From NCBI RefSeq assembly GCF_902464545.1, contig NZ_CABQJR010000011.1, forward strand, positions 3,001-67,000: a stretch of 64,000 nucleotides of DNA, written 5' to 3'. This DNA comes from an uncultured Senegalimassilia sp. (GTDB lineage: Bacteria; Actinomycetota; Coriobacteriia; Coriobacteriales; Eggerthellaceae). The notes under the pieces were generated by a model that saw only the letters and a program-made list of their open reading frames with translations, ran no database searches and was not told the origin of the DNA. A program made the translations under genes and the position numbers. Below are positions 535 to 18,125 of this stretch, piece after piece; positions within the stretch are counted from its first letter, which is position 1; each line of letters opens with the position of its first letter.

Positions 535-2469
<1,935 letters not shown>

Positions 2470-2475
2470 GGCGCG

Positions 2476-3939
2476 CTACGACTCCTTTCGCCCTTCGATG
2501 GCCGCGAAATAGCCGGCTACGGCACAGGCGATCTCGGGGATATCCTCTTCGGTGATGGTGCGCGCGTCGAACAGCACGCATTCGCGCTTGATGCGCGCGA
2601 TCACGGGTACGTCGCGGTTGCGCTGCAGATGCTCCTCGCAGCCCTGCGCGTCGCCGGCCTCGAAGCGCATGCGCACGCAGAACGTGGGGATGTCGCACAT
2701 GGGAAGCGACCCTCCGCCTGCACGCCCCGTCTCCTCCACGATCTCCAGCTGCGCCTGCTTGGGCGTCACGCGCTTGGCCAAGGCCTCCATCAATGCTTCG
2801 GCACGTTCGCGAACCGTTTCGGCATCTTCGGTGAGCATGCGCAGCGTGGGGATGCGGGCAAGCGCATCCTCGGGGTCCAGATACAGGCGCAGCGTGGCCT
2901 CCAAGGCGGCGAGCGTCATCTTGTCCAGGCGCAGCGCGCGGGCCAGCGGATGCTTCTTCAGGCGGTCGATGTAGTCCTTGCGGCCCACCACGATGCCGGC
3001 CTGTGGCCCGCCGAGCAGCTTATCGCCCGAGAAGCTGACCAGGTCGCATCCCTCGGCAAGCGATTCGCGCACCGTGGGCTCGGCGTATTCACCGAACACG
3101 TCCAGGTGCATGAACGCGCCCGAGCCCTGGTCCTCGTAGACGAGCACTTCGGGCCAGGCGGCGCCCGCAGCGCCGCGGCGGGCGTTTTCCGCATCGGCGA
3201 TGCGGCGCAGGTCGGTCTTCGAGACGCTTTCAGTGAACCCGATCATGCGGTAGTTGGAGGGGTGCACCTTGAGCAGCATGGCCGTGTCGGGCGTGATGGC
3301 GCGTTCGTAATCGAAGGCGTGCGTCTTGTTCGTGGCGCCCACCTCCACCATGCGGGCGTTTGACTGGGCCATGATGTCGGGGACGCGGAAGCTGCCGCCG
3401 ATCTCGACGAGCTCGCCTCGGCTGACGATGGCCTCGTGGCCGGCAGCGAACTCGGCGAGCACCATCATGACGGCTGCCGCGTTGTTGTTCACGGCGATGG
3501 CCGCCTCTGCGCCGGTGAGCGCGCAGATCAGATGCTCCACGTGATCATGACGGCTGCCGCGCGCCATGATCTCGATGCTGTATTCCAGCGTGGAGTAGCC
3601 GCGCGCCGCCTCCACCACCGCCTGCACGGCGGGCTCTGCCAGCACGCTGCGGCCGAGGTTGGTGTGGATGACCACGCCGGTCGCGTTGATGACGCGCCTG
3701 AGGCTTGGGCGCAGCGTTGCGAGCGCGCCGTTGACGGCATCGGTCAAGATGGCCTCGCCATCGACTGCATCCGCCTCGCCCGCCAAGATGAGCCGACGTT
3801 GCGCATCCACGGCCGCGCGGGCGCGGTCGACGAGCATGGAGCGGGGGACGATGGCTTCGAGCGCCTTCATGGGTGCGGCTTGCATCAGCTCTTCGACCTG
3901 GGGCAATGCGCGTAACAGATCGGTACGTGGTTCGGGCAT
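2476..3939 (-). CDS. selA: L-seryl-tRNA(Sec) selenium transferase SelA
   Basis: Frame of ORF 2476-4041. Start placed at ATG 3939 (MPEPRTDLLRALPQVEEL...), preceded by AAGAGGA. PLP-lysine motif FSGDKLLGGPQAG is typical of SelA. Confidence 0.92.
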   Translation of the reverse strand: MPEPRTDLLRALPQVEELMQAAPMKALEAIVPRSMLVDRARAAVDAQRRLILAGEADAVDGEAILTDAVNGALATLRPSLRRVINATGVVIHTNLGRSVLAEPAVQAVVEAARGYSTLEYSIEIMARGSRHDHVEHLICALTGAEAAIAVNNNAAAVMMVLAEFAAGHEAIVSRGELVEIGGSFRVPDIMAQSNARMVEVGATNKTHAFDYERAITPDTAMLLKVHPSNYRMIGFTESVSKTDLRRIADAENARRGAAGAAWPEVLVYEDQGSGAFMHLDVFGEYAEPTVRESLAEGCDLVSFSGDKLLGGPQAGIVVGRKDYIDRLKKHPLARALRLDKMTLAALEATLRLYLDPEDALARIPTLRMLTEDAETVRERAEALMEALAKRVTPKQAQLEIVEETGRAGGGSLPMCDIPTFCVRMRFEAGDAQGCEEHLQRNRDVPVIARIKRECVLFDARTITEEDIPEIACAVAGYFAAIEGRKES

Positions 3940-4192
3940 GGGTCCTCTTTCCCTATAGCGTGCGGCGGCGCCCCGCATGCGGGGCGCCGCGGGTTTTCCG
4001 TAGCTCAATATAGCAGTCATGGCATATGCGGCCCCGGGCAAGGCGGCGAGTGCGCCAAATGTCCGGCAAATGTTATCGCAGGCGGGTCAATTCGCGCCGT
4101 TCACGCCAACGCGGGCGTTTCACGCGTGCAGCCATGCAAAAATTACCGTGTTTTTCCAAAAGACGAGAGATCGCGAACAGGGGGAGGTTTCC

Positions 4193-5035
4193 ATGGCAAT
4201 GGATCAATCGGATGTGAAGGCGCTGCGACCCGATGCGCTCGGCCCCGCCGAGATCGAGGCGAAGGCCGAGACGCTGGCCGAGGGCAAGGCCGGCATGGCG
4301 GGCGCGAAGTGCTTCGTGCTGGCGATGCTCGCCGGTGCGTTCATCGCGTTCGGCGCAACGTATTTCCTGGTGTTCCTGGGCGACTCGGCCGTGCCGTTCG
4401 CCGCTCAGCGCATGGTCGGCGGCATCTGCTTCAGCCTGGGCCTGGTGCTTGTGCTGTGCTGCGGCGCCGAGCTGTTCACCGGCAACATGCTCATGGTCAC
4501 GGGCTTGGCTTCGGGCAAGATCAAACTTGGCGGCCTGGTGCGCAACTGGGTCATCGTGTGGCTGGGCAACCTGGTCGGGTCGCTGATCGTGGTGGCGCTC
4601 ATCTACTGGTGCGGCGTCGGCTCGATGAACGGCGGCGCCGTGGGCGACGCCATGGTGTCGGTGGCCGTCGGCAAGGTCACCCCCGATTGGCTCGTGCTCA
4701 TGGCCAAGGGCATCATGTGCAACGTCATGGTGTGCCTGGCGGTGTGGATCGGCTTTTCCGCGCGCACCGTGGTGGACAAGGTGCTCGGCATCATGCTCCC
4801 CATCAGCTTCTTCGTGGCAGCCGGCTTCGAGCACTGCGTGGCGAACATGTTCTTTTTGCCTACGGGCCTGCTCATGAAGTCCGCCGGGTTCGGCGCTGCG
4901 GTCGCCAATGCCGGCGCGCTTGATGTCACGGCCATCCTGTACAACCTTTCGGCCGCCACGGTCGGCAACATCATCGGCGGCGTCCTGGTCGGTCTGGCCT
5001 ACTGGTTCGCGTATGCCAGGAAGAGCGCGAAGTAG
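4193..5035 (+). CDS. formate/nitrite transporter (FNT) family anion channel, substrate unassigned
   Basis: Frame of ORF 4019-5035. Start placed at ATG 4193 (MAMDQSD...) behind GGGGAGG. FNT signatures GAELFTGN and GFEHCVANMF, with multiple TM helices. Confidence 0.85.
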   Translation: MAMDQSDVKALRPDALGPAEIEAKAETLAEGKAGMAGAKCFVLAMLAGAFIAFGATYFLVFLGDSAVPFAAQRMVGGICFSLGLVLVLCCGAELFTGNMLMVTGLASGKIKLGGLVRNWVIVWLGNLVGSLIVVALIYWCGVGSMNGGAVGDAMVSVAVGKVTPDWLVLMAKGIMCNVMVCLAVWIGFSARTVVDKVLGIMLPISFFVAAGFEHCVANMFFLPTGLLMKSAGFGAAVANAGALDVTAILYNLSAATVGNIIGGVLVGLAYWFAYARKSAK

Positions 5036-5071
5036 CGCGAAGCCCGGTGTTCCGGCCCAAACGATTTTGCG

Positions 5072-5108
5072 AACGGCACTTGCGGATTGCAGGTGCCGTT
5101 TTCTTTTT
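5072..5108 (+). terminator. rho-independent terminator after the FNT gene
   Basis: Stem AACGGCACTTGC / GCAGGTGCCGTT followed by TTTTCTTTTT. Confidence 0.65.
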
Positions 5109-5193
5109 GCGCGGCGGCGCGGTTGGGCGGCGGTGCTATAGTCGGTTAAAAGACGCGCCGTTTTCTGCCATCGGGCGCGCTGGATTCTGCACG

Positions 5194-5234
5194 CGCAAGC
5201 ATGCTTGCGTCACTTGCGCATATCCTTTTGCGCA
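5194..5234. promoter_or_regulatory. candidate operator: perfect 16-bp palindrome plus two TTGCGCA direct repeats
   Basis: CGCAAGCATGCTTGCG (5194-5209) is its own reverse complement. TTGCGCA recurs at 5214-5220 and 5228-5234 (14-bp spacing). Lies 37-77 bp upstream of the ATG at 5271. Confidence 0.3.
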
Positions 5235-5270
5235 CGCATCATCACAGACGAGAAACGAATAGAGGCTTCC

Positions 5271-6449
5271 ATGTTCGAACCCGCAAACGAACCGGCGGTG
5301 CCCGTCGACCTGCCCGGCATCTACGATACCTTCGACGAGGCGCGCCGCGCCAGCTTCGTCAACGCCATGAACTACAAGCAGGAGGGCGGCAACCTGTGCG
5401 GTTACCTGTGCTCGTACAGCCCGCTTGAGCTGGTGGACGCCGCGGGCGCCGGCGCGGTGGGCCTGTGCGGCATGAACAACGAGACCATCCCCGATGCCGA
5501 GACGGTGCTGCCCAAAAACCTCTGCCCGCTCATCAAGGGCACGTACGGCTTCGCGCTCACCGACAAATGCCCTTTCACCTACTTCAGCGACATAATCTTG
5601 GGCGAGACCACGTGCGACGGCAAGAAGAAGATGTACGAGCTGCTCGCCGACATCAAGCCGGTGCACGTCATGCAGCTGCCCCAGGCGCGTAACCGCAGCT
5701 ACGCCGGCGATATCTGGTATGAGGAATGCAAGCTGCTCAAAGAGGAGCTCGAGCAGCGCTTCGACGTCCAGATCACTGACGAGGCCCTGCGCGAGGCGGT
5801 CTGCAAGCGCAACCGCGTCCGCCGCGCCATGATGGATCTGTACAACCTGCAGCAAAACGAGCCCCCCGCGATGAGCGGCGTGGAGCTTATGGCCACCTTG
5901 CTGCGCGCCACGTTCGGCTTTGATGTGGATTCCTATGCTCAAACCCTTGAGGACCTGGCGCAGAAGCGCCGCAGCGCCTACGAGGCGGGGGAGCGTCCGG
6001 TGCCCGCAAGCGCCAAGCGCATCATGATCACGGGCTGCCCCACGGGCGGCGTCATCCAGAAGGTGGGCATGACCGCCGAGCGTGCCGGCGGCGTGATCGT
6101 CTGCATCGACGACTGCTCCGGCGAGCGCACGCAGGGCATGCTCGTCGACGAGGACGCGCCCGATATCCTGCGCGCCATCTCCGATCGTTATCTGCAGATC
6201 AATTGCTCGGTCATGTCGCCCAACGAGGGCCGAGTCGAGCATATGATGGACATGGTGGGGAAATACAAGGTGGATGGCGTCGTTGAGGTGGTGTTGCAAG
6301 CTTGCCACACCTTCAACATCGAGGCGGTGCGCGTGCAGCGCGCCTGCGAGCAGGCCGGCGTGCCTTACATGAAGCTTGAAACCGATTACTCCACCAACGA
6401 TGCCGGCCAGGTGGAAACCCGCCTGGGCGCGTTCATCGAGATGCTGTAG
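5271..6449 (+). CDS. HgdB/BcrC/BadD-family Fe-S protein (2-hydroxyacyl-CoA dehydratase D-component fold), single-subunit, double-cubane-cluster reductase (DCCP/YjiM)-like
   Basis: Frame of ORF 5205-6449, start ATG 5271 (MFEPANEP...). Conserved Cys contexts [36 protein letters not shown] and LQACHTF are typical of the HGD-D family. Only one such subunit is present, with no HgdA/HgdB pair and no CoA-transferase gene. Confidence 0.8.
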
Positions 6450-6497
6450 CCGATCGTTTATGCACATGCGGCGCTGCGCCGCGGAAAGGAAACGCTC

Positions 6498-7097
6498 ATG
6501 GAGAAGCTCGATTGCAAGGGGCAGGCGTGCCCGTTGCCCGTGGTGAACGCGAAGAAGGCCCTTGCCGGCATGGGCGAGGGCGCCCTTGAGGTGGTGGTGG
6601 ACAACAAGACCGCTATGCACAACCTGGAAAACCTGGGCAAGTCGCTCAAGATCGAAACCGCCTCCGAGCAGCGCGGCGAAGCGGAGTTCGCGGTGACCTT
6701 CACGAAGGGCGCTCAGGCTGCCGCCGAGACATGCGAGGAGTGCCAGCCGCTCGTGCCGGCGGGGCAGAAGGTGGTCGTGTTGTCCAGCGAGCTGATGGGC
6801 TCGGGCGACGACGAGCTGGGCGCCACGCTCATGAAGGCGTTCGTGTTCGCGCTCACCCAGCAAGACGAGCTGCCGGCGGCCATCCTGGCCTACAACGGCG
6901 GCGTGCATCTGACCGTCGAGGGCAGCCCTGTGCTCGAGGACCTGAAAAAGCTCGCCGAAGCCGGCGTGGAGATCTTCAGCTGCGGAACCTGCCTCAACCA
7001 TTTCGGGATTGCCGACAAGCTTGCGGTGGGCGAGGTGACCAACATGTACGTCATCGTCCAGAAGCAGCTTGAGGCCGGCGTCGTCGTACGCCCCTAG
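6498..7097 (+). CDS. yedF: selenium metabolism protein YedF (TusA/SirA-like N-domain plus DsrE-like C-domain)
   Basis: 199 aa. N-terminus MEKLDCKGQACPLPVV carries the TusA-type CPxP motif. The C-terminal half (...FSCGTCLNHFG...) is as in the ~200-aa YedF family found next to selD. RBS GAAAGGA. Confidence 0.85.
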   Translation: MEKLDCKGQACPLPVVNAKKALAGMGEGALEVVVDNKTAMHNLENLGKSLKIETASEQRGEAEFAVTFTKGAQAAAETCEECQPLVPAGQKVVVLSSELMGSGDDELGATLMKAFVFALTQQDELPAAILAYNGGVHLTVEGSPVLEDLKKLAEAGVEIFSCGTCLNHFGIADKLAVGEVTNMYVIVQKQLEAGVVVRP

Positions 7098-7115
7098 CCG
7101 TTGGCGGTATGTAAG

Positions 7116-7358
7116 ATGCAGCGATGCAAAACGCCGCATGCGGTGGTGACGTTTCATAGCACGGCCGACGCGATGGCCGTGCAGGCCGCCGCGGCCGGCG
7201 GCGGCCTGCCGGGGCGGGTTATCCCGGTGCCCTCCGAGATCTCCGCGGGCTGCGGCCTGGCCTGGAGCGTTCCCGCCGAGCAGCGCGAAACGCTCGAGGA
7301 AGCGCTCGCGCACCGGGGGCTTGCCTTCGAGGACATCACCGTTGTGGATCTGTACTGA
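7116..7358 (+). CDS. DUF3343 (putative Se/S carrier protein-like) small protein
   Basis: Frame of ORF 7101-7358 (TTG); ATG at 7116 preferred. ~80 aa with the pattern FHSTADAMAV...VIPVPSEISAGCGLAW, typical of DUF3343 (single conserved Cys in xCGxA). Confidence 0.75.
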   Translation: MQRCKTPHAVVTFHSTADAMAVQAAAAGGGLPGRVIPVPSEISAGCGLAWSVPAEQRETLEEALAHRGLAFEDITVVDLY

Positions 7359-7467
7359 ACGCAAGGGGAGCCGTCGTCCGACGGCTCCCCTTGTTTTGCG
7401 TATGGCTTATTGCGACCATGGATGGCAACGGTTCGGCCGGTGCCCTGCGATGCGCCGGTCTGCGCGC

Positions 7468-8559
7468 TTACCAGTTCACGAAGATCTTGCCTGCCGGCCC
7501 GGCTTCGAAGGCTCCGATGCGGGAGGGTTTGCGTCCCTGGCGCTGCTCGCACTCCGCCTCGAAGCGGCTTGCGTTTTCCGGCGGGATGGCCACGAGCAAG
7601 CCGCCGGAGGTCTGCGGGTCGCACAGCACGCCCATGCGGTCGTCGAACTCGAAGTCGTCGATTTCGCCCTGCTCCACGAACGAGCTTGCCCAGTCGATGA
7701 TGCCGAACGTCTTGCCGGGGCGGCAGTAGTCGCACGACAGCTCGTAGACACCGTCGAACAGGGGCAATGCGTCCCAGTCCAGCCGCGCCGCGCATCCGGA
7801 CGCGTCGAGCATCTCGTGCAGATGCCCGGCAAGGCCGAAGCCGGTGACGTCGGTGCAGGCATGCACATCGCATTGCAGCATGGCCTCGGCGGCGGCGCGG
7901 TTGAGCTCCATCATGCCGTCGATGACCGGGCGAAGGTCCTCGTCGCTGCGCAGCTTCGCCCGCAGCGCGGCGTTCATGATGCCCGTGCCGAGCGTTTTCG
8001 TGTAGTACAGCGCATCCCCCGGCAGCGCCCCGCCGTTTCGTACCATGCGCTCAGGGTGCACCAGGCCGAACACGGAAAGGCCGTATTTGGGCTCGTCGTC
8101 TTCGATGGAATGGCCGCCCACCACGAACGCCCCGGCCTCGCGCACCTTGTCCGCGCCGCCGCGCAGCACGTCTCCCACCACATCGGTGCCCATGCAGCTG
8201 GGGAAGGCCAGGATGTTGAGCGCCGTGACGGGCCTGCCGCCCATCGCGAACACGTCGGACAGGGCGTTTGCCGCGGCCACGGCGCCGAACTCGTACGGGT
8301 CGTCGACCACGGGCGTGAAGAAGTCAAGCGTCAGCACGGCGGCGTTGTTTTCGTCCACCTGCCAAACCGCCGCGTCGTCTGCGGTGTCGAAGCCAAGCAA
8401 CAGGTTCGGGTCTGGCACGGCTGGCGCGATATCGCGCAGAATCTCGGAGAGGTCTCCCGGACCCCATTTAGCCGCTCAACCGCCTTTATCGGTGAGCGTG
8501 GTCAGGCGAATGCGATCGCCGTCGCACATGGCGCCGCTCGCGGGGTTGTCCGTGCTCAT
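7468..8559 (-). CDS. selD: selenide, water dikinase (selenophosphate synthetase) SelD, selenocysteine-containing; in-frame UGA at 8476-8478 = codon 28
   Basis: ORF track stops at 8418. Reading the same frame upstream gives ATG 8559: MSTDNPASGAMCDGDRIRLTTLTDKGG-U-AAKWGPGDLSEILRDIAPAVPDPNLL... The TGA sits where E. coli SelD has the catalytic Cys of the G-x-G-C/U-x-x-K loop. The rest of the protein is an AIR-synthase-like SelD body. Confidence 0.9.
8449..8465 (-). promoter_or_regulatory. candidate SECIS hairpin for the selD UGA
   Basis: On the mRNA the stem GGGGUC / GACCUC (6 bp including one G-U) with loop CGGGA begins 11 nt after the UGA. This spacing fits bacterial SECIS elements. The stem is short and not validated. 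Confidence 0.35.
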
Positions 8560-8706
8560 GCGCGGTCCTTTCTTATGGGGTCGGGTCGGTATCATTGCCA
8601 GTATAGTATAGTCGCAAGTAGGTATGCATCTTTTTGCATCAGGCGCGAAAGCGTTTGATAGGGTGCGGTTTCATGGGCTTGCAACGAAAGGCAGGGAGCA
8701 TCGGGT

Positions 8707-9474
8707 ATGGCGGGCATCGGCATCGACATCGGTTCCACGGCTACGAAGGCCGTCGTGACGGATTCTTCGGGCGCCATCGCGTTCAAGCTGGTCATCCCCA
8801 CCGGCTTTTCAAGCGTCGAGGTTGCCGAACAGGTGCGCAGCGCGCTTGCCTGCGAGGGGTTCGATGCGGGCGGGATGCCGGTGGTGGCCACAGGGTACGG
8901 CCGTGTGGCCGTGCCGTACGCGGACAAGGTGGTCACCGAGATTACCTGCCACGCCCGCGGCGCCTCGGCGCTGTTTCGCGAAGACGGCACCGTCATCGAT
9001 ATCGGCGGGCAGGATACCAAGGCCATCGGCCTTGCTGGCGGCAAGGTGCGCAAGTTCGTCATGAACGACAAATGCTCTGCGGGCACCGGGCGCTTCTTGG
9101 AGATCATGGCCGACCGTTTGGGCGTCAGCCAAGCCGAGCTCGCGCGCTTGGCGGCCGCCGGGCAGCCCACCGTCATCTCCAACATGTGCACCGTGTTCGC
9201 CGAATCCGAGGTCATCTCCTTGGTGGGCAAGGGCGAGCCGCGCGAGAACATCGCCCGCGGGGTCATCGATTCGGTCGTGGCGCGCGTGTGCACGCTCGTG
9301 GGGCAGGTTCCCGCGGCGCGATATCACCTTACCGGCGGGTTGTGCGACAACGATTACGTCCGCGCGCGTTTGGAGGCCGAGCTGGGCGCGCCGGTGGGTT
9401 CTTGCCCCGATGCGCGTTTCGCGGGAGCCTTGGGCGCGGCCGTCATCGCAGCCGAGATAGAGGCTGCGGAATAG
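8707..9474 (+). CDS. HgdC/BcrA/BadF-type ATPase, activator (archerase) of 2-hydroxyacyl-CoA dehydratase/DCCP-type enzymes
   Basis: 255 aa. GIDIGSTATK (ASKHA phosphate-1), DIGGQDTK, and NDKCSAGTGRFLE plus CTVFAESEVIS (cluster-bridging Cys motifs) are collinear with HgdC as I recall it. Divergent from selD. Confidence 0.85.
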   Translation: MAGIGIDIGSTATKAVVTDSSGAIAFKLVIPTGFSSVEVAEQVRSALACEGFDAGGMPVVATGYGRVAVPYADKVVTEITCHARGASALFREDGTVIDIGGQDTKAIGLAGGKVRKFVMNDKCSAGTGRFLEIMADRLGVSQAELARLAAAGQPTVISNMCTVFAESEVISLVGKGEPRENIARGVIDSVVARVCTLVGQVPAARYHLTGGLCDNDYVRARLEAELGAPVGSCPDARFAGALGAAVIAAEIEAAE

Positions 9475-9509
9475 CGGTTTGCGCCTTCGCCGCCATTGTC
9501 TTTGCGGAT

Positions 9510-9543
9510 GGGCCGTTCGGCTTTCTCCATACGGCCCGCTTTT
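9510..9543 (+). terminator. putative terminator after the activase gene
   Basis: GGGCCGT / ACGGCCC stem with a 14-nt loop, followed by GCTTTT. Confidence 0.5.
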
Positions 9544-9648
9544 CGCCGCTTTGAGGGCATATCTTCCCTTCATCTATTCCCCGTACGCATTCACGGTGCC
9601 GGTGAAAATCGGTGACCGTCATCATCTTCGAACGATTGGGTACAAGCC

Positions 9649-10782
9649 ATGATCTATCTGGACAACGCAGCCACCACCATGCACAAGCCCCAGGCCGTCA
9701 TCGATGCGGTGTGCGGGGCCATGACGTCGTTCGGCGGCCCTGGACGCGGCTCGCACCAGGCCGCGCTCGATGCGAGCATGGCGGTGTTCGGGGCGCGCAA
9801 GGCGGTTTCGGACCTGGTCGGGGCCTGGGGCGCCGGCAGCGTGTCGTTCGCCTTGAACGCCACCATGGCCCTCAACATCGCCATCGACGGCCTGTTGCCC
9901 GCAGGCGGCGTTGCCGTCACCACGGCCGCCTCGCACAACTCCGTGCTGCGCCCGCTCAACCGCGCGCGCGACGAGCGCGGATGCCAGGTGCGCGTGGCCG
10001 GCATCCTACCTGATGGCTCGCTAGATTGGGAATCCTACGAGCAGGCCCTTGCCGGTGCCAGCCTGGTCACGGTCACGCACGCCTCCAACGTCACCGGCGA
10101 CGTCTACGACATCGAGCGCATGGCGGCCGCCGCGCATAACGCAGGCGCGCTGTTCATCCTCGATGCCGCCCAGACGGCCGGCGCGTGGGCGTTCTCGGCT
10201 TCGGCCATCGGCGCAGACGTCGTGTGCTTCACGGGCCACAAAAGCCTGTATGGGCCGCAGGGCACCGGCGGGCTGTGCGTTCGCCCGGGCCTTGATATCG
10301 CCCCGCTGGTGGAAGGCGGATCGGGCGTGCACAGCTTCGATGAGCGCCATCCACGCTTCATGCCCGAGGCGCTCGAGGCCGGTACGGCAAACGCGCACGG
10401 CTTGGTGGGCCTTGCGGCAGGGTGCGCCTGGCTTGCAAAGTGCGGCGTGGCCGATGTGCAAGCGCATATCGAGGGGCTGGTGGCGCGCTTCCTGGAAAGG
10501 GTCGCCGACATCGATGGCGTGCGGGTGCTCGGCGGCGGCTCCGGTCGACGCTGCGGCATCGTCGCCGTCAACGTCGGCGATGCCGATTCCGGCGAGATCG
10601 CCGATCGGCTGGCGCAGGGGTGGGGCGTGTGCGTCCGTCCGGGCGCGCATTGCGCCCCGCTCATGCACACGGCGCTCGGCACGCAGCAGCAGGGCGTCGT
10701 GCGCTTCAGCTTCGGGGCTATGAACTCGTCGCAGGATTGCGATGCGGCTCTTGAGGCCCTGCGCGAAATCGCCTGCTCGTGA
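9649..10782 (+). CDS. class V aminotransferase-fold PLP enzyme, NifS/CsdB-like cysteine desulfurase / selenocysteine lyase
   Basis: 377 aa. Starts MIYLDNAATT; PLP-lysine context FTGHKSLYGPQG; active-site Cys context RPGAHCAP. Small NifS-like enzymes of this kind commonly sit next to selD. Confidence 0.85.
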   Translation: MIYLDNAATTMHKPQAVIDAVCGAMTSFGGPGRGSHQAALDASMAVFGARKAVSDLVGAWGAGSVSFALNATMALNIAIDGLLPAGGVAVTTAASHNSVLRPLNRARDERGCQVRVAGILPDGSLDWESYEQALAGASLVTVTHASNVTGDVYDIERMAAAAHNAGALFILDAAQTAGAWAFSASAIGADVVCFTGHKSLYGPQGTGGLCVRPGLDIAPLVEGGSGVHSFDERHPRFMPEALEAGTANAHGLVGLAAGCAWLAKCGVADVQAHIEGLVARFLERVADIDGVRVLGGGSGRRCGIVAVNVGDADSGEIADRLAQGWGVCVRPGAHCAPLMHTALGTQQQGVVRFSFGAMNSSQDCDAALEALREIACS

Positions 10783-10836
10783 CCCGTTTCGTATGCTTCC
10801 GTAACCCAACGCCATCCAGATCCCGAAAGGACCTCC

Positions 10837-12108
10837 ATGCGCATCCTCTGCATCTCCGCCCAAAAGCCCGATAGCACCGGCAGCGGCGTGTACCTGGCCG
10901 AAACGGTGGCCTCTATGGCCGCCGCCGGCCACCAGGTGGCCGTCATCGCCGGCATCGACAAGGATGACTCCCCGCAGCTTGCCAGCGGCGTCGAGTTCCT
11001 TCCGGTGCGCTTTCGCACACCTGAGCTGCCGTTTCCCGTGTGCGGCATGAGCGACGTGATGCCTTACCAGGCCACACGGTATCGCGACATGACGCCGGAG
11101 ATGGTCCAGGCGTTCCGCGCTGCGTTCGGGAAGCGCATTCGCGAGGCGGTGCTGGGCTTCCGGCCCGATGCGATCATCTGCCATCACCTGTATCTGGTGT
11201 GCTCGACGGCTTGCGATGTGCTCGATGCTTTTGCCGGTGAAAATCGGTTACCGGACGTGAATGGGGAAGTGGCGGGCCGAAAGGGGCGCCCGTGCCCGAT
11301 CTGGGCGGTTTGCCACTCCACCGACCTTCGCCAGCTACGCAACCACAGCCTGGAGAAGGAGCGCATCACCGACGCCGTCCGCTCGCTCGATGGGGTCATG
11401 GCGCTGCACGAGGCGCAGAAGGCCGAGATCGCCGAGCTGTTCGGGCTGCCCGCCGAACGCATCCGCGTCGTGGGGACCGGCTACAACTCCCAAGAGTTCG
11501 CTCCTCGCGCCGGTTTGCGCCCATCCCGTCCGTTGCGCGTGCTGTACGTGGGCAAGCTCTGTCGCGCAAAGGGCGTGGAAAGCCTTGTTCGCGCCATGGA
11601 CCTGCTGCCCTTCGACCCGCAAGACGTCGAGCTGCGCCTGGTCGGCGGCTATAGCGACCAGGCGCAGTACGACCGAATCGTCGAGCTGGCCGGCCGTTGC
11701 CGGTTCCCGGTGGCGTTTCGCGGCCGCGTCTCGCAGGATGACCTGGTGCTTTCGTATAACGCAAGCCATGTGTTCGTGTTGCCCTCGTTTTTCGAGGGGC
11801 TGCCGCTCGTCACGGTGGAGGCGCTTGCAAGCGGCTGCCGGGCGGTCGTCACAAGCCTTCCCGGCGTCAAGCCCTGGCTTGACGCGTGCCTTCCCGATGC
11901 CCCCGTCTCGTTCGTGGAGCCGCCGCGCATCGAGGGCGTCGACGTGCCCGTGTCCGAGGATCTGCCGGCTTTCGAGCAGCGCCTTTCTGATGCGCTGCTC
12001 GAACAGCTTCAAGCGGCGGCGGAGCGACCCCTTGAGGGGACCGGGTTCGACGCCACCGCCGTGTCTTGGGATTCACTGGCCGCCCGCATGACCGAGCTGA
12101 TCGGCTAG
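10837..12108 (+). CDS. GT-B fold glycosyltransferase, family 4-like
   Basis: 423 aa. N-terminus MRILCISAQKPDSTGSGVY; E-x7-E motif FFEGLPLVTVEALASG; RBS GAAAGGA. Lies 54 nt after the aminotransferase gene. Confidence 0.8.
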   Translation: MRILCISAQKPDSTGSGVYLAETVASMAAAGHQVAVIAGIDKDDSPQLASGVEFLPVRFRTPELPFPVCGMSDVMPYQATRYRDMTPEMVQAFRAAFGKRIREAVLGFRPDAIICHHLYLVCSTACDVLDAFAGENRLPDVNGEVAGRKGRPCPIWAVCHSTDLRQLRNHSLEKERITDAVRSLDGVMALHEAQKAEIAELFGLPAERIRVVGTGYNSQEFAPRAGLRPSRPLRVLYVGKLCRAKGVESLVRAMDLLPFDPQDVELRLVGGYSDQAQYDRIVELAGRCRFPVAFRGRVSQDDLVLSYNASHVFVLPSFFEGLPLVTVEALASGCRAVVTSLPGVKPWLDACLPDAPVSFVEPPRIEGVDVPVSEDLPAFEQRLSDALLEQLQAAAERPLEGTGFDATAVSWDSLAARMTELIG

Positions 12109-15649: not shown

Positions 15650-16837
15650 CTACTTGCGCAGCGCCTTCGTTGCGAAACCGGGGATCATGAACACCATCGA
15701 GATGGCGAAACCGACCATAAGAACGGTGCTCAAAGCCAAGGTGTTGGCGATGGTGCTCATGGCGATGCTCACTACCGTGGAGCCCACATAGCCGGTGAAG
15801 TTGATGAGCGATACCACGCTGGCGCTGTCGGCGGGGTCGCTGTAGCTGATGAGCATATGCATGCTGGCGGACAGGAGGATGCCGGTGGAAACGCTGAACA
15901 CGCCGTCGGCGATCAGGAACGGCACCGTCATGCCCTTCGTGAGCGTAACCCACAAGATCGCGTAGCTGACGCACAGCAGCGCCGTGCCGCCGTATACGGC
16001 GAATCGCGTGGTGGTGCGGGCGGACATGGGGCCGCCCAACGCGCTCGGTGCCATGGCCAGCGCGAACATGAGCGCGGGGATTAACGGGTCGGTCGATTTG
16101 AAGTACGCCACAGCGGCAGGGGTTGACAGCGATTGGAAAAACACGCCGGTGCCCCAAGCCGCGATATAGCATCCTGCGGCAAGCGGGAATACCGGGCGAA
16201 GGTTCTTCGGGATATGCACGAGCGGTTTGATGGCCTTGCGGATGGTGATCCGCTGCGTGACCGTTTCCTGCGCAAGCGGAAGAAGGACGGCATTGAGCAT
16301 CATCAGCACGATGAGCACGGCGAACATGGGGATATAGTTGCGCGAGAACGTGGCGTAGATACCGATGCCCAAAGACCCGATCATCATGCCGATCAAGCAG
16401 CCGGTGCTGGCGATGGTGGTGCCGAAGGTGCGATAGCGCTGCGAGGTGCAATCAAGCATGAAAGCCGAGGTCGCGCTCATGGTGAGGCCGCACGAAACGC
16501 CTTGCACCATACGGGCGATCTGCAAGGCGGCTCCGTTTGGCAGCCAGATATACAGCGCGCAGGCTAGCGAGCCGAACAGCAGGGCGGCGGCCACGAGCGG
16601 CCTGCGACCGAGCGCGTCCGAGAGCGAACCTCCTACGAACAACGTGGTCAGAACGCCGGTGAGATAGGAAACCATGGTCAGCGAGATGTCGGCATCGGTC
16701 AGCCCCAGGGCTACCTTGTACTCGGCGTACAACGGCACGGGCACCGCCACCGCGGCGAAGGTCAGCAGCATGGCGCACGCCGCGATGATGGCGCTTCTCA
16801 GGTCTTTCGCATTCGATGCGTGGCAGTTTTCGGTCAT
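15650..16837 (-). CDS. MFS transporter (paralog 1)
   Basis: 395 aa, about 12 predicted TM helices, with GRRP-type loop LSDALGRRP. Collinear with the neighbouring paralog. Confidence 0.85.
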   Translation of the reverse strand: MTENCHASNAKDLRSAIIAACAMLLTFAAVAVPVPLYAEYKVALGLTDADISLTMVSYLTGVLTTLFVGGSLSDALGRRPLVAAALLFGSLACALYIWLPNGAALQIARMVQGVSCGLTMSATSAFMLDCTSQRYRTFGTTIASTGCLIGMMIGSLGIGIYATFSRNYIPMFAVLIVLMMLNAVLLPLAQETVTQRITIRKAIKPLVHIPKNLRPVFPLAAGCYIAAWGTGVFFQSLSTPAAVAYFKSTDPLIPALMFALAMAPSALGGPMSARTTTRFAVYGGTALLCVSYAILWVTLTKGMTVPFLIADGVFSVSTGILLSASMHMLISYSDPADSASVVSLINFTGYVGSTVVSIAMSTIANTLALSTVLMVGFAISMVFMIPGFATKALRK

Positions 16838-16928: not shown

Positions 16929-18125
16929 TTATCGTTGATGTTTAGCCATCGATATGCATCCCGGTACGATCGAGATGGCGGCGAGAAGCGCGATGAAGGC
17001 GTACACCGTTGCCAGGTCGAATGTGGCGGTGAGCCCTGTTTGAATGGTCGACACCACGGTCGACCCTACGTAACCGGTCAGGTTGGCAAGCGTTACCACG
17101 CTGGCGTTTTCCTGCGGGGTGGATGCGCTGATGAGCATATGCAGACTCGAGGATAGGATCATGCCCGTGGTGACTGCGAACACCACCTCGAGCACCAGAT
17201 AGGGGACCAAAAGCCCCAAAACCATGCACACCCCTAGTGCGATGATCGTGTCGAACATGATGATGTAGCCGACGATCATAGAAGATCGCGTTCCCATGCG
17301 CGCCGAAACAGGCCCTCCTAGCGCACTCGGTGCCATGGCCAAAGCCAGCACCAAAGACGGGATGAGCGGATCGGTTGCCCCGAAGTAGTCCACCGATGCC
17401 GGCGTGGAAAGCGATTGGAAGAAGAAGCCGACCGACCAGGTGGAGATATAGCCGCCGGCCACGATAGGGAGCAGCTTTCGAAGATGGGGCGGCACGTGCA
17501 CCATCGGCTTCACGGCTTTTTTCCAGGTGATGCGGTTGTGCACCGTTTCAGGCGTGAAGGGAAGGGCGAGCATCGTTGCGAGCATGATTACGGCCATCAC
17601 GGCGAATACCTGCCAATAGGCGGTGGAAACGGTGGCGAAAAACCCGATGCCTAGCGATCCCACGGTAAGCCCGATCAGATACCCTGTGCTTGCGATGGTC
17701 ATACCGAACGTGCGATGGCGCTCCGAGGTGCAGTCGATTACGAACGCAGAGGTGGCGCTCATGGAGAGTGCACAGGAAACGCCCTGCACGAAACGGGCGA
17801 ATTGCAGCATAGGGCCGCTTGACAGACCGATGAACAGCAGGCAGCCGGCAACGCCGCAGGCAAGCGCGGCGCCCACTGTGGGCCTGCGCCCGGATGCGTC
17901 CGACAGCGATCCGGCGAAGAACAGGACGGAAAGCACGCCGAACAGGTACATGACGATGGTCATGGAAACGTCGGAGGCGGAAAGACCCAGCTGTTGCTGC
18001 CACGTGGCGTAAAGCGGGATGGGCGCGGAGGCTGCCGCGAACACCGTTACCAAAGCCACCGTTCCCACGATGGCGCCGCGCATCGCACCTGGAGGTTGGC
18101 TTGTCGCCTGTTCATCGATTCCCAT
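16929..18125 (-). CDS. MFS transporter (paralog 2)
   Basis: 398 aa. Shares long near-identical runs with paralog 1, e.g. ARFVQGVSCALSMSATSAFVIDCTSERHRTFGMTIASTG versus ARMVQGVSCGLTMSATSAFMLDCTSQRYRTFGTTIASTG. Confidence 0.85.
   Translation of the reverse strand: MGIDEQATSQPPGAMRGAIVGTVALVTVFAAASAPIPLYATWQQQLGLSASDVSMTIVMYLFGVLSVLFFAGSLSDASGRRPTVGAALACGVAGCLLFIGLSSGPMLQFARFVQGVSCALSMSATSAFVIDCTSERHRTFGMTIASTGYLIGLTVGSLGIGFFATVSTAYWQVFAVMAVIMLATMLALPFTPETVHNRITWKKAVKPMVHVPPHLRKLLPIVAGGYISTWSVGFFFQSLSTPASVDYFGATDPLIPSLVLALAMAPSALGGPVSARMGTRSSMIVGYIIMFDTIIALGVCMVLGLLVPYLVLEVVFAVTTGMILSSSLHMLISASTPQENASVVTLANLTGYVGSTVVSTIQTGLTATFDLATVYAFIALLAAISIVPGCISMAKHQR

Follow-up and report, generated by a model that had tools for sequence, protein, structure and literature searches.

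What an ATP-driven double-cubane protein contributes to selenocysteine (Sec) synthesis is the question raised by a stretch of DNA from an uncultured Senegalimassilia sp. (contig NZ_CABQJR010000011.1), referred to below as the window, which covers 64,000 nt at about 63% G+C. The selenium locus of the window is compact and lies within the first 12 kb, and five contiguous genes at positions 5271–9474 encode a double-cubane cluster protein (DCCP), YedF, a DUF3343 protein, SelD and an ATP-dependent activase. What double-cubane [8Fe-9S] proteins do physiologically has been open since their discovery and, to our knowledge, the source of selenide for SelD in vivo is unsettled; the locus sets these two problems side by side. 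The best explanation of the arrangement is that this is the organism's selenium-utilisation locus, with a short-class DCCP and its activase recruited into the trafficking module. As to what the pair does there, we propose, with a probability of a little under 40%, that it provides SelD with selenide through the ATP-dependent reduction of Se(0)-level selenium carried on YedF, DUF3343 or a lyase. Were this so, a physiological substrate would be assigned to an [8Fe-9S] enzyme for the first time, and the step that generates selenide, a gap in bacterial selenophosphate synthesis, would be filled.

A true double-cubane protein with its own activase

The gene at 5271–6449 (+), whose ATG at 5271 is preceded at 7 nt by the Shine-Dalgarno sequence GAGG, encodes a 392-aa protein of the HGD-D family (PF06050, E 1.4e-108). 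It scores 488.1 bits against NF040772, the 'double-cubane-cluster-containing anaerobic reductase' model (cut-off 350), with a match that spans the full model (1–372). Its best relative of solved structure is the DCCP of C. hydrogenoformans (PDB 6ENO; 39% identity, E 6e-79), with BzdN and HadC far behind, and on the other equivalog models it falls well short (HadC 79.6 against a cut-off of 700, BzdN 86 against 454, BcrC 68 against 421). By sequence-family membership it classifies as a true DCCP/YjiM-type protein and not as an HgdB or Bcr subunit, in agreement with what an earlier, sequence-only reading of this DNA had suggested. Seven cysteines (C47, C66, C85, C115, C282, C312 and C345) align with those of 6ENO, C100 is an eighth, and all eight are invariant across 44 aligned DCCPs. 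The literal published seven-cysteine spacing pattern does not match, the spacings here being X18, X18, X29, X166, X29 and X32; since the alignment with 6ENO shows a difference in spacing only, this mismatch is no argument against membership in the family.

The protein lacks about 29 N-terminal residues of 6ENO (its residue 33 aligns with chain residue 62), which places it in the short, YjiM-like 'class II'. N-terminal helices are said to close the substrate channel in the C. hydrogenoformans protein, and because short-class DCCPs do without them, substrates bigger than small molecules should be able to enter their site.

The partner of this protein is encoded at 8707–9474 (+). The 255-aa product is an HgdC/DCCP-R-type ATP-dependent electron-transfer activase ('archerase'), matching TIGR00241 (221 bits, cut-off 125) and PF01869. 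Alignments with MbdQ, HgdC, HadI and DCCP-R span the whole protein, and its solved relatives are MbdQ (181 bits), HgdC (171 bits) and DCCP-R (7YYL_E, 147 bits). The motifs GIDIGSTATK, DIGGQDTK, NDKC(123)SAGTG and C(161)TVFAESE align with those of MbdQ and HgdC, and the activase keeps both cysteine motifs for the bridging [4Fe-4S] cluster. Judged by these matches, the DCCP's dedicated HgdC-like reductase is encoded in the same locus.

The pair brackets a selenium-trafficking module

Between the two components lie three genes of selenium trafficking. yedF (6498–7097, +; TIGR03527 212.5 bits against a cut-off of 110) follows the DCCP gene after 48 nt, and the gene for a small DUF3343/Se_S_carrier protein (7101–7358, +; PF11823 71.2 bits against 25) follows yedF after 3 nt. 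selD (7468–8559, −; TIGR00476 365 bits against 125) is divergent from the activase gene across a 147-nt spacer, which leaves the activase 2.3 kb from the DCCP, beyond yedF, DUF3343 and selD. A strong terminator-like hairpin of 14 bp at 5071–5101 stands between the DCCP-yedF-DUF3343 unit and a gene for a formate/nitrite-family (FNT) channel upstream, which is its own transcription unit. The DCCP and selenium genes are probably arranged as one operon set; a scan for sigma-70-like promoters found none, in a high-GC actinobacterium for which such a scan is uninformative. The profile searches bore out the gene positions, the contiguity of the five genes, the single HGD-D gene upstream of yedF and DUF3343, and the pairing of a Sec-containing selD with an HgdC-type activase, all of which had been read earlier from the translations.

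YedF joins a TusA-like domain (PF01206) carrying CPLP ('ACPLP', residues 10–14) to a DsrE-like domain (PF02635) carrying CEEC and CGTC. The DUF3343 protein, whose likely start is the ATG at 7116, has a single invariant cysteine, in the motif SAGCGLAW (33 homologues). An AlphaFold model (pLDDT 89.9) predicts a ferredoxin-like beta-alpha-beta-beta-alpha-beta sandwich with this cysteine on a long exposed loop between strands 2 and 3, a picture that fits a small putative carrier presenting a Cys-bound ligand. A sequence search of the PDB returned no solved relative, and Foldseek found no specific fold relative, giving only generic ferredoxin-like, ACT, PII and CutA matches (E > 0.02).

The selD gene carries an in-frame TGA at 8476–8478, in 'DKGG*AAKW' of the N-terminal glycine-rich loop. 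A hairpin follows the UGA, but as a candidate Sec insertion (SECIS) element it does not stand out from shuffled sequence (z = −0.19). Among the 94 selD genes that neighbour DCCP loci (L001–L163 in our numbering), 89 have the same TGA, at G-G/S-U-A-A-K; two of the others have a Cys codon (L007, L118) and three are apparently frameshifted. On this codon evidence, SelD next to a DCCP is nearly always itself a selenoprotein.

The association recurs despite rearrangement

To see how widely the arrangement is shared, we mapped ten proteins of the window onto 80 genome and 80 metagenome loci encoding DCCP relatives, by tblastn and then by iterated hidden Markov models (HMMs). The focal DCCPs were clustered at 80% identity, giving 37 clusters (6 from Coriobacteriia and 31 others), and a neighbourhood was taken as 10 kb. 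Each scan was limited to the best 80 matches, which are mostly from Collinsella, so the sample outside Coriobacteriia is small (31 clusters) and its frequencies are rough; taxa there were assigned by exact-sequence look-ups.

In Coriobacteriia, all 6 clusters have selenium genes in the neighbourhood, in varying gene order. The Collinsella order is DCCP2-DCCP-ACT-(GT4)-SelD-YedF-DUF3343-SCL (ACT, activase; SCL, lyase; DCCP2, a second DCCP; GT4, a glycosyltransferase), with protein identities to the window of only 45–68%, and in some Collinsella species FNT-SelA-SelB lies a few kb further on. The same gene set is found in Slackia (L080). Closer to home, the locus recurs at 96% identity on two contigs from metagenome-assembled genomes labelled Coriobacteriia and Coriobacteriaceae, and the closest named relative of the DUF3343 protein, at 84% identity, belongs to an uncultured Senegalimassilia.

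The adjacency is not confined to this lineage. Outside Coriobacteriia we found SelA-ACT-DCCP-YedF-SCL-DUF3343-SelD-SelB in Anaerovoracaceae/Eubacteriales (L143), SelD-YedF-ACT-DCCP in Clostridium sp. CAG:58 / Lachnospiraceae (L107), ACT-DCCP and then YedF-SCL-DUF3343 on an unassigned contig of 35% G+C (L112), and YedF adjoining the DCCP in Oscillospiraceae (L139). In a 3-Mb genome, a single-copy gene has a less than 1% chance of lying no more than 10 kb from a gene picked at random, and at least four independent occurrences among the 31 clusters therefore represent strong enrichment, though they are a minority. In a rough neighbour-joining tree the selenium-adjacent loci fall into at least three short-class clades, interleaved with non-adjacent ones. 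The nearest partners of the DCCP are the presumed pre-SelD genes (yedF, DUF3343 and the lyase), even where selD is absent from the 10 kb (L112, L087, L142).

In two further lineages DUF3343 is the only one of these selenium genes that accompanies the DCCP and activase: Christensenellales (L159) and E. coli (L164). E. coli K-12 yjiM encodes a short-class DCCP (NF040772 531 bits) that is 46% identical to that of the window. After yjiM-yjiL, and overlapping yjiL by 4 nt, comes ytiA, which encodes an 85-aa protein annotated as 'uncharacterized protein YtiA' (L164 11669–11926, −; NC_000913.3 4563668–4563925). Its match to PF11823 (48.9 bits against a cut-off of 25, E 4.4e-13) identifies it as a DUF3343 protein, a point of which we found no mention in the searchable literature. 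Thus yjiM-yjiL-ytiA is a DCCP-activase-DUF3343 trio, and the trio is common to Actinomycetota, Bacillota and Pseudomonadota. Unlike the genes of the window, it is not adjacent to selD, yedF or a lyase gene. It offers a genetically tractable system for direct tests. Since the association is found repeatedly in both Coriobacteriia and Clostridia of the gut, it has a bearing on bacterial competition for selenium there.

In relatives there is a second DCCP paralogue, which has about 37% identity, keeps all cysteines and is often accompanied by a second DUF3343 gene. It lies at about 8700–9820 in the Collinsella loci, and in L003 (13818–15226), an 83%-identical relative of the window locus, the paralogue and a second DUF3343 gene stand between selD and the activase gene. 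This paralogue groups with the long, class-I DCCPs in the neighbour-joining tree. Without it, the window represents a reduced version of the cluster.

We also surveyed 15 DCCP loci without selenium genes, where 134 neighbour proteins were assigned to 152 Pfam families. CoA-transferase or acyl-CoA genes formed no theme around these 15 loci; the sequence-only reading had named them as the neighbours that would argue against a selenium role. The only repeats were ABC transporters, rubrerythrin and UroD-like methyltransferases. Two of the loci without selenium neighbours hold what may be weak but recurring hints of selenium. In L136 (6032–11137) an 'mlp' cluster, RACo-UroD-UroD (UroD/MtaA-like), of a type implicated in methyl-selenide use, lies directly upstream of the DCCP, with the nearest activase 4.5 kb downstream. 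In L104, a LysR gene (8107–9009, −) is divergent from ACT-DCCP with no other selenium gene within 10 kb, and its product matches the LysR protein of a Mediterraneibacter selenium cluster from end to end at 38% identity (E 1e-64); this similarity makes it a possible regulator of LysR_Se type for the DCCP operon.

A known correlation in a particularly complete setting

The sequence-only reading was unaware of any described link between such reductases and selenium, and in this it was wrong, as three publications precede it. Haft & Gwadz 2022 (bioRxiv 10.1101/2022.07.06.499078), who built NF040772, devote a section to 'Double-cubane proteins and selenium', in which 955 of 970 high-scoring DCCPs come from SelD-positive assemblies, compared with 38% of genomes overall; DCCPs are thus far from equally frequent in genomes without selD. 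They proposed selenium-compound processing, a pathway link or a selenium-bridged cluster. In Slackia heliotrinireducens, the top STRING partners of YedE, YedF, DUF3343 and LysR_Se include a '2-hydroxyglutaryl-CoA dehydratase subunit' and a 'CoA-substrate-specific enzyme activase' (Lin et al. 2015, PMC5322559, Table 1), which that study passed over without comment and did not name as selenium candidates. In a 2023 preprint (PMC10418091), a figure of gene clusters sorts genes into known and putative selenium metabolism, and its legend includes labels for DCCP and DCCPR. The correlation is therefore already published, and the present locus is a further and particularly complete example of a known, unexplained association. 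New here are the proposal that the pair generates selenide for SelD, the finding that it is embedded in the Sec-synthesis locus itself, the data on recurrence and rearrangement, the distinction between short and long DCCP classes, and the link to E. coli YtiA.

A possible route to selenide

The proposed route would run as follows. A pyridoxal phosphate (PLP)-dependent lyase, or another source, would supply Se(0)-level selenium as a cysteine perselenide, which would be handed to cysteines of YedF (TusA-type CPxP) and DUF3343 (the GCG loop). The activase would take up an electron from ferredoxin or flavodoxin and, driven by ATP hydrolysis, pass it into the double-cubane cluster. The DCCP could then reduce the Se(0)-level species, whether free or still on its carrier, to selenide, and the Sec-containing loop of SelD would take the selenide on to selenophosphate for SelA and tRNA-Sec. 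We infer from gene context each of these chemical steps, what the substrate is, and that the pair acts upstream of SelD. A more specific version, in which the short-class DCCP, the activase and DUF3343 together would form an ATP-driven Se(0)/perselenide reductase, with the Cys loop delivering selenium to the open [8Fe-9S] site, reduction there, possibly by way of the labile bridging position of the cluster, and release of selenide to SelD, is offered tentatively and is on balance doubtful.

Several observations point to selenide generation. The redox pair is complete, with its cluster and ligand cysteines kept. The closest and most persistent neighbours of the DCCP are carriers presumed to act before SelD, and the DCCP-yedF-DUF3343 genes are tightly linked, with a terminator-like hairpin splitting off the FNT gene. 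In the short class the active site is open, and in the DUF3343 model the only invariant cysteine sits on an exposed loop. In E. coli and Christensenellales, where the other selenium genes are missing from the neighbourhood, DUF3343 still accompanies the pair. The association recurs despite rearrangement and agrees with the published co-occurrence, and no competing theme emerges around DCCPs that lack selenium neighbours. In addition, at pH 7 bulk selenium has a strongly negative Se(0)/HSe- potential of about −0.7 V, a range in which ATP-coupled 'archerase' systems serve.

A number of points weigh against this proposal. Thiols readily reduce selenotrisulfides and perselenides, which leaves no obvious need for a reductase driven by ATP. 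The chemistry rests on gene context, which would also accommodate a selenium-containing cofactor or another selenium substrate, and the DCCP of C. hydrogenoformans has been described without a known physiological function. Only 4 of the 31 DCCP clusters outside Coriobacteriia have selenium genes within 10 kb, and none of the seven sampled class-I (long) DCCPs, relatives of the crystallised enzyme, do; that class-I proteins nonetheless correlate with SelD without any adjacency is a weakness of the argument. Two or more DCCP paralogues per locus in the relatives suggest several substrates. Most SelD-positive genomes have no DCCP (4.7% against 38% of genomes; Haft & Gwadz 2022).

Selenium modules also exist without the pair. 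Starting from DUF3343 homologues outside Coriobacteriia, we found YedF-SelD-LysR-SCL-YedE-TusA-DUF3343 in Mediterraneibacter (L169/L170, 4734–10237), with neither DCCP nor activase. In Johnsonella (L171), YedF-DUF3343-SCL is followed by two open reading frames (ORFs) of 104 and 58 aa with BcrAD_BadFG matches at 11506–12005, apparently the remains of an activase gene, and gene calling found no DCCP in the surrounding 10 kb; this suggests that the module once held the pair and then lost it. Of the other DUF3343 contexts, one contig has YedF-DUF3343 and one has DUF3343 by itself. These modules without DCCP, together with the decayed activase, indicate that the trafficking module is the constant part and that the DCCP/activase pair is an accessory, present with it in certain lineages only and open to later loss. 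No YedE homologue is in range in the 163 loci that were reached by way of a DCCP homologue, and the window has none either. YedE-type and DCCP-type clusters may thus be alternatives, although the YedE side is represented by a single species and Slackia is reported to have both.

Alternative explanations

One alternative keeps the pair in selenium metabolism and changes its substrate. Here the pair would reductively process a free selenium metabolite, such as methylselenides, selenosugars, a selenocyanate-like compound or an organometal(loid), with selenium released or detoxified and then collected by the carriers. In the literature, DCCPs adjoin SAO organometallic loci (21 of 52 species) and also mlp clusters, as they do in the RACo-UroD-UroD-DCCP order of L136. 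The recurrent GT4 gene, found after ACT-DCCP in L146, would also fit, as would the Opp-type ABC importer upstream of the DCCP in L147, the multiple paralogues per locus (several substrates) and the view that the C. hydrogenoformans DCCP activates small molecules. On the other hand, the window has no specific transporter for such a compound, its FNT channel being FocA-like; no mlp or SAO families occur among the locus genes, and the remaining ORFs of the window are housekeeping-like by translation. Moreover, small-molecule chemistry was suggested for class I by a narrow channel, which the short class lacks. We regard this explanation as unlikely.

A second alternative, which we also hold to be improbable, is that the pair has no direct selenium chemistry. 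It would act on an unrelated refractory anaerobic substrate, and the link with selenium would reflect a shared niche, anoxic co-regulation or a selenoenzyme step elsewhere, the adjacency in Coriobacteriia being inherited. This would account for the 21 of 31 non-Coriobacteriia clusters that have neither selenium genes nor weaker hints within 10 kb, for the class-I loci, which are simple DCCP-activase pairs (one without activase) in unrelated contexts, for the selenium modules that work without a DCCP in Mediterraneibacter, and for E. coli, where yjiML is reported to be directly activated by FNR under anoxia. It is harder to reconcile with adjacency to single-copy selenium genes in at least four independent lineages outside Coriobacteriia, each at a chance below 1%, with the persistence of the cluster through extensive rearrangement down to about 45% identity, and with the coupling of DUF3343 to the pair in E. 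coli and Christensenellales. Nor does any other functional theme recur.

Selenium could instead be a part of the enzyme, which seems to us quite improbable. In that case the DCCP cluster would carry a selenium atom, for example at the bridging sulfide, the DCCP would lie downstream of SelD, and the carriers would mature the cofactor. This is a formal possibility raised by Haft and Gwadz that would explain the 955 of 970 DCCPs in SelD-positive genomes, including non-adjacent and class-I proteins, and it has a precedent in the selenium-dependent molybdenum hydroxylases that co-localise with selD. Against it, the C. hydrogenoformans DCCP has been described with an all-sulfur [8Fe-9S] cluster, and that protein is active with acetylene. 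No YqeB/YqeC-, SelU- or SenB-type maturase was identified in the locus (the GT4 protein reaches 30.6 bits on SenB against 300), and the tightest neighbours of the DCCP are the pre-SelD carriers even where selD is more than 10 kb away. Possible support from 'orphan SelD' genes in Collinsella had to be dropped: selD there carries the in-frame TGA, and with this codon in 89 of 94 genes Sec decoding must be present, so the orphan argument fails. A selenium-bearing cluster and the reduction to selenide that we favour may, speculatively, converge if selenium were to occupy the bridging position of the cluster transiently. Selenium exchange is known in nitrogenase, by analogy.

A 2-hydroxyacyl-CoA dehydratase or a class-I benzoyl-CoA reductase can be dismissed, as had been anticipated for the former, because the protein lies far below the HadC, BzdN and BcrC cut-offs, tblastn finds no second HGD-D gene (and so no HgdA partner) in the 64 kb, no CoA-transferase or acyl-CoA gene is among the profiled genes at 535–12108, and there is a single ATPase gene as opposed to a four-subunit enzyme.

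Comparison with known systems

The DCCP/DCCP-R pair of C. hydrogenoformans (CHY_0487/0488; 6ENO, 7YYL) shares with the window NF040772 membership, the cluster cysteines and an ASKHA-family ATPase partner, but its activase gene is immediately downstream of the DCCP gene, not at a distance past selD. With the HgdAB/HadBC dehydratases and their HgdC, and with class-I benzoyl-CoA reductases, the window shares the superfamily of both components (PF06050 and PF01869) and the principle of ATP-driven injection of low-potential electrons; it has no alpha-subunit partner. Another counterpart is Slackia heliotrinireducens (PMC5322559), whose listed STRING partners likewise include SelA, SelB, SelD, YedF, DUF3343, a Sec-lyase family protein, the 'HGD subunit', the 'activase' and a glycosyltransferase. 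Slackia has in addition YedE and LysR_Se, two DCCPs and three DUF3343 proteins, whereas the window has one DCCP, one DUF3343 protein and no YedE. The SAO-type DCCP loci (Haft & Gwadz) belong to the same NF040772 family and share the tie to selenium-using genomes; they differ in their neighbours, which are an ABC importer, a MerB-like lyase and an efflux pump in place of the selenium-delivery and Sec-synthesis genes of the window. None of the locus genes matched the SAO or mlp families, and the other ORFs of the window appeared housekeeping-like from their translations.

Other genes of the locus

The five-gene core described in the sequence-only reading holds, but the locus extends further than was stated there, which left out tRNA-Sec, selB, selA, the FNT channel, the SufS/SclA-like lyase and the GT4 gene. 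tRNA-Sec (selC, anticodon TCA) lies at 192–288 (+; ARAGORN, and Rfam RF01852 at 66.3 bits against a gathering score of 47). It is followed by selB, for the selenocysteine-specific elongation factor (535–2469, −; TIGR00475 348 bits against a cut-off of 242, with SelB winged-helix and beta-barrel Pfam domains), and selA (2476–3939, −; TIGR00474 558 bits against 268, and PF03841), for which a longer form from a TTG at 4041 is possible.

The FNT channel gene (4193–5035, +) matches PF01226 (226 bits) and reaches 222 bits on the FocA model TIGR04060, below its cut-off of 290. Among solved structures its product is about twice as similar to FocA (194 bits) as to the hydrosulfide channel or NirC (98 bits each), which makes a formate channel the simpler reading; a hydroselenide channel was set aside on this ground, and a role in moving HSe- or HSeO3- is possible. 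FocA-like FNT proteins that fall below the FocA and fnt NCBIfam cut-offs recur in the selenium loci of Coriobacteriia, and in L007 (4682–5515) and L118 (12442–13266) the gene lies between those for the activase and YedF.

Downstream of the activase, the gene at 9649–10782 (+) encodes a class-V PLP enzyme of the SufS/EF2568 (SclA-like) group (PF00266 245 bits). It is SufS-like, with Cys335 in 'GAHCAP' (the HCA cysteine), and it falls below the cut-offs of both TIGR01977 (330 against 377) and NF040779 SclA (271 against 525); selenocysteine lyase and cysteine desulfurase are its candidate activities.

At the edge of the cluster, 10837–12108 (+) encodes the GT4 glycosyltransferase (PF00534, PF13439 and PF13692), with no NCBIfam model above its cut-off. 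A SenB-like selenosugar synthase was considered and rejected, its SenB score being what any GT4 protein would give, and against the characterised GT4 subfamilies MshA, BshA and SenB it was in each case far below the cut-off. The gene nevertheless travels with the selenium/DCCP cluster: it stands between the activase gene and selD in about 40% of Collinsella loci (e.g. L049 12075–13262) and directly after ACT-DCCP in L146 (11281–12471), on an unrelated contig of 52% G+C. Its product may conceivably be a selenosugar or a low-molecular-weight thiol.

Beyond 12108 come pyrR, pyrB and pyrC and then housekeeping-like genes, as read from translations. Between pyrR-pyrB-pyrC and carA- and carB-like genes lie two adjacent paralogous membrane proteins of about 395 aa (15650–16837, −, and 16929–18125, −), which look transporter-like from their sequence.

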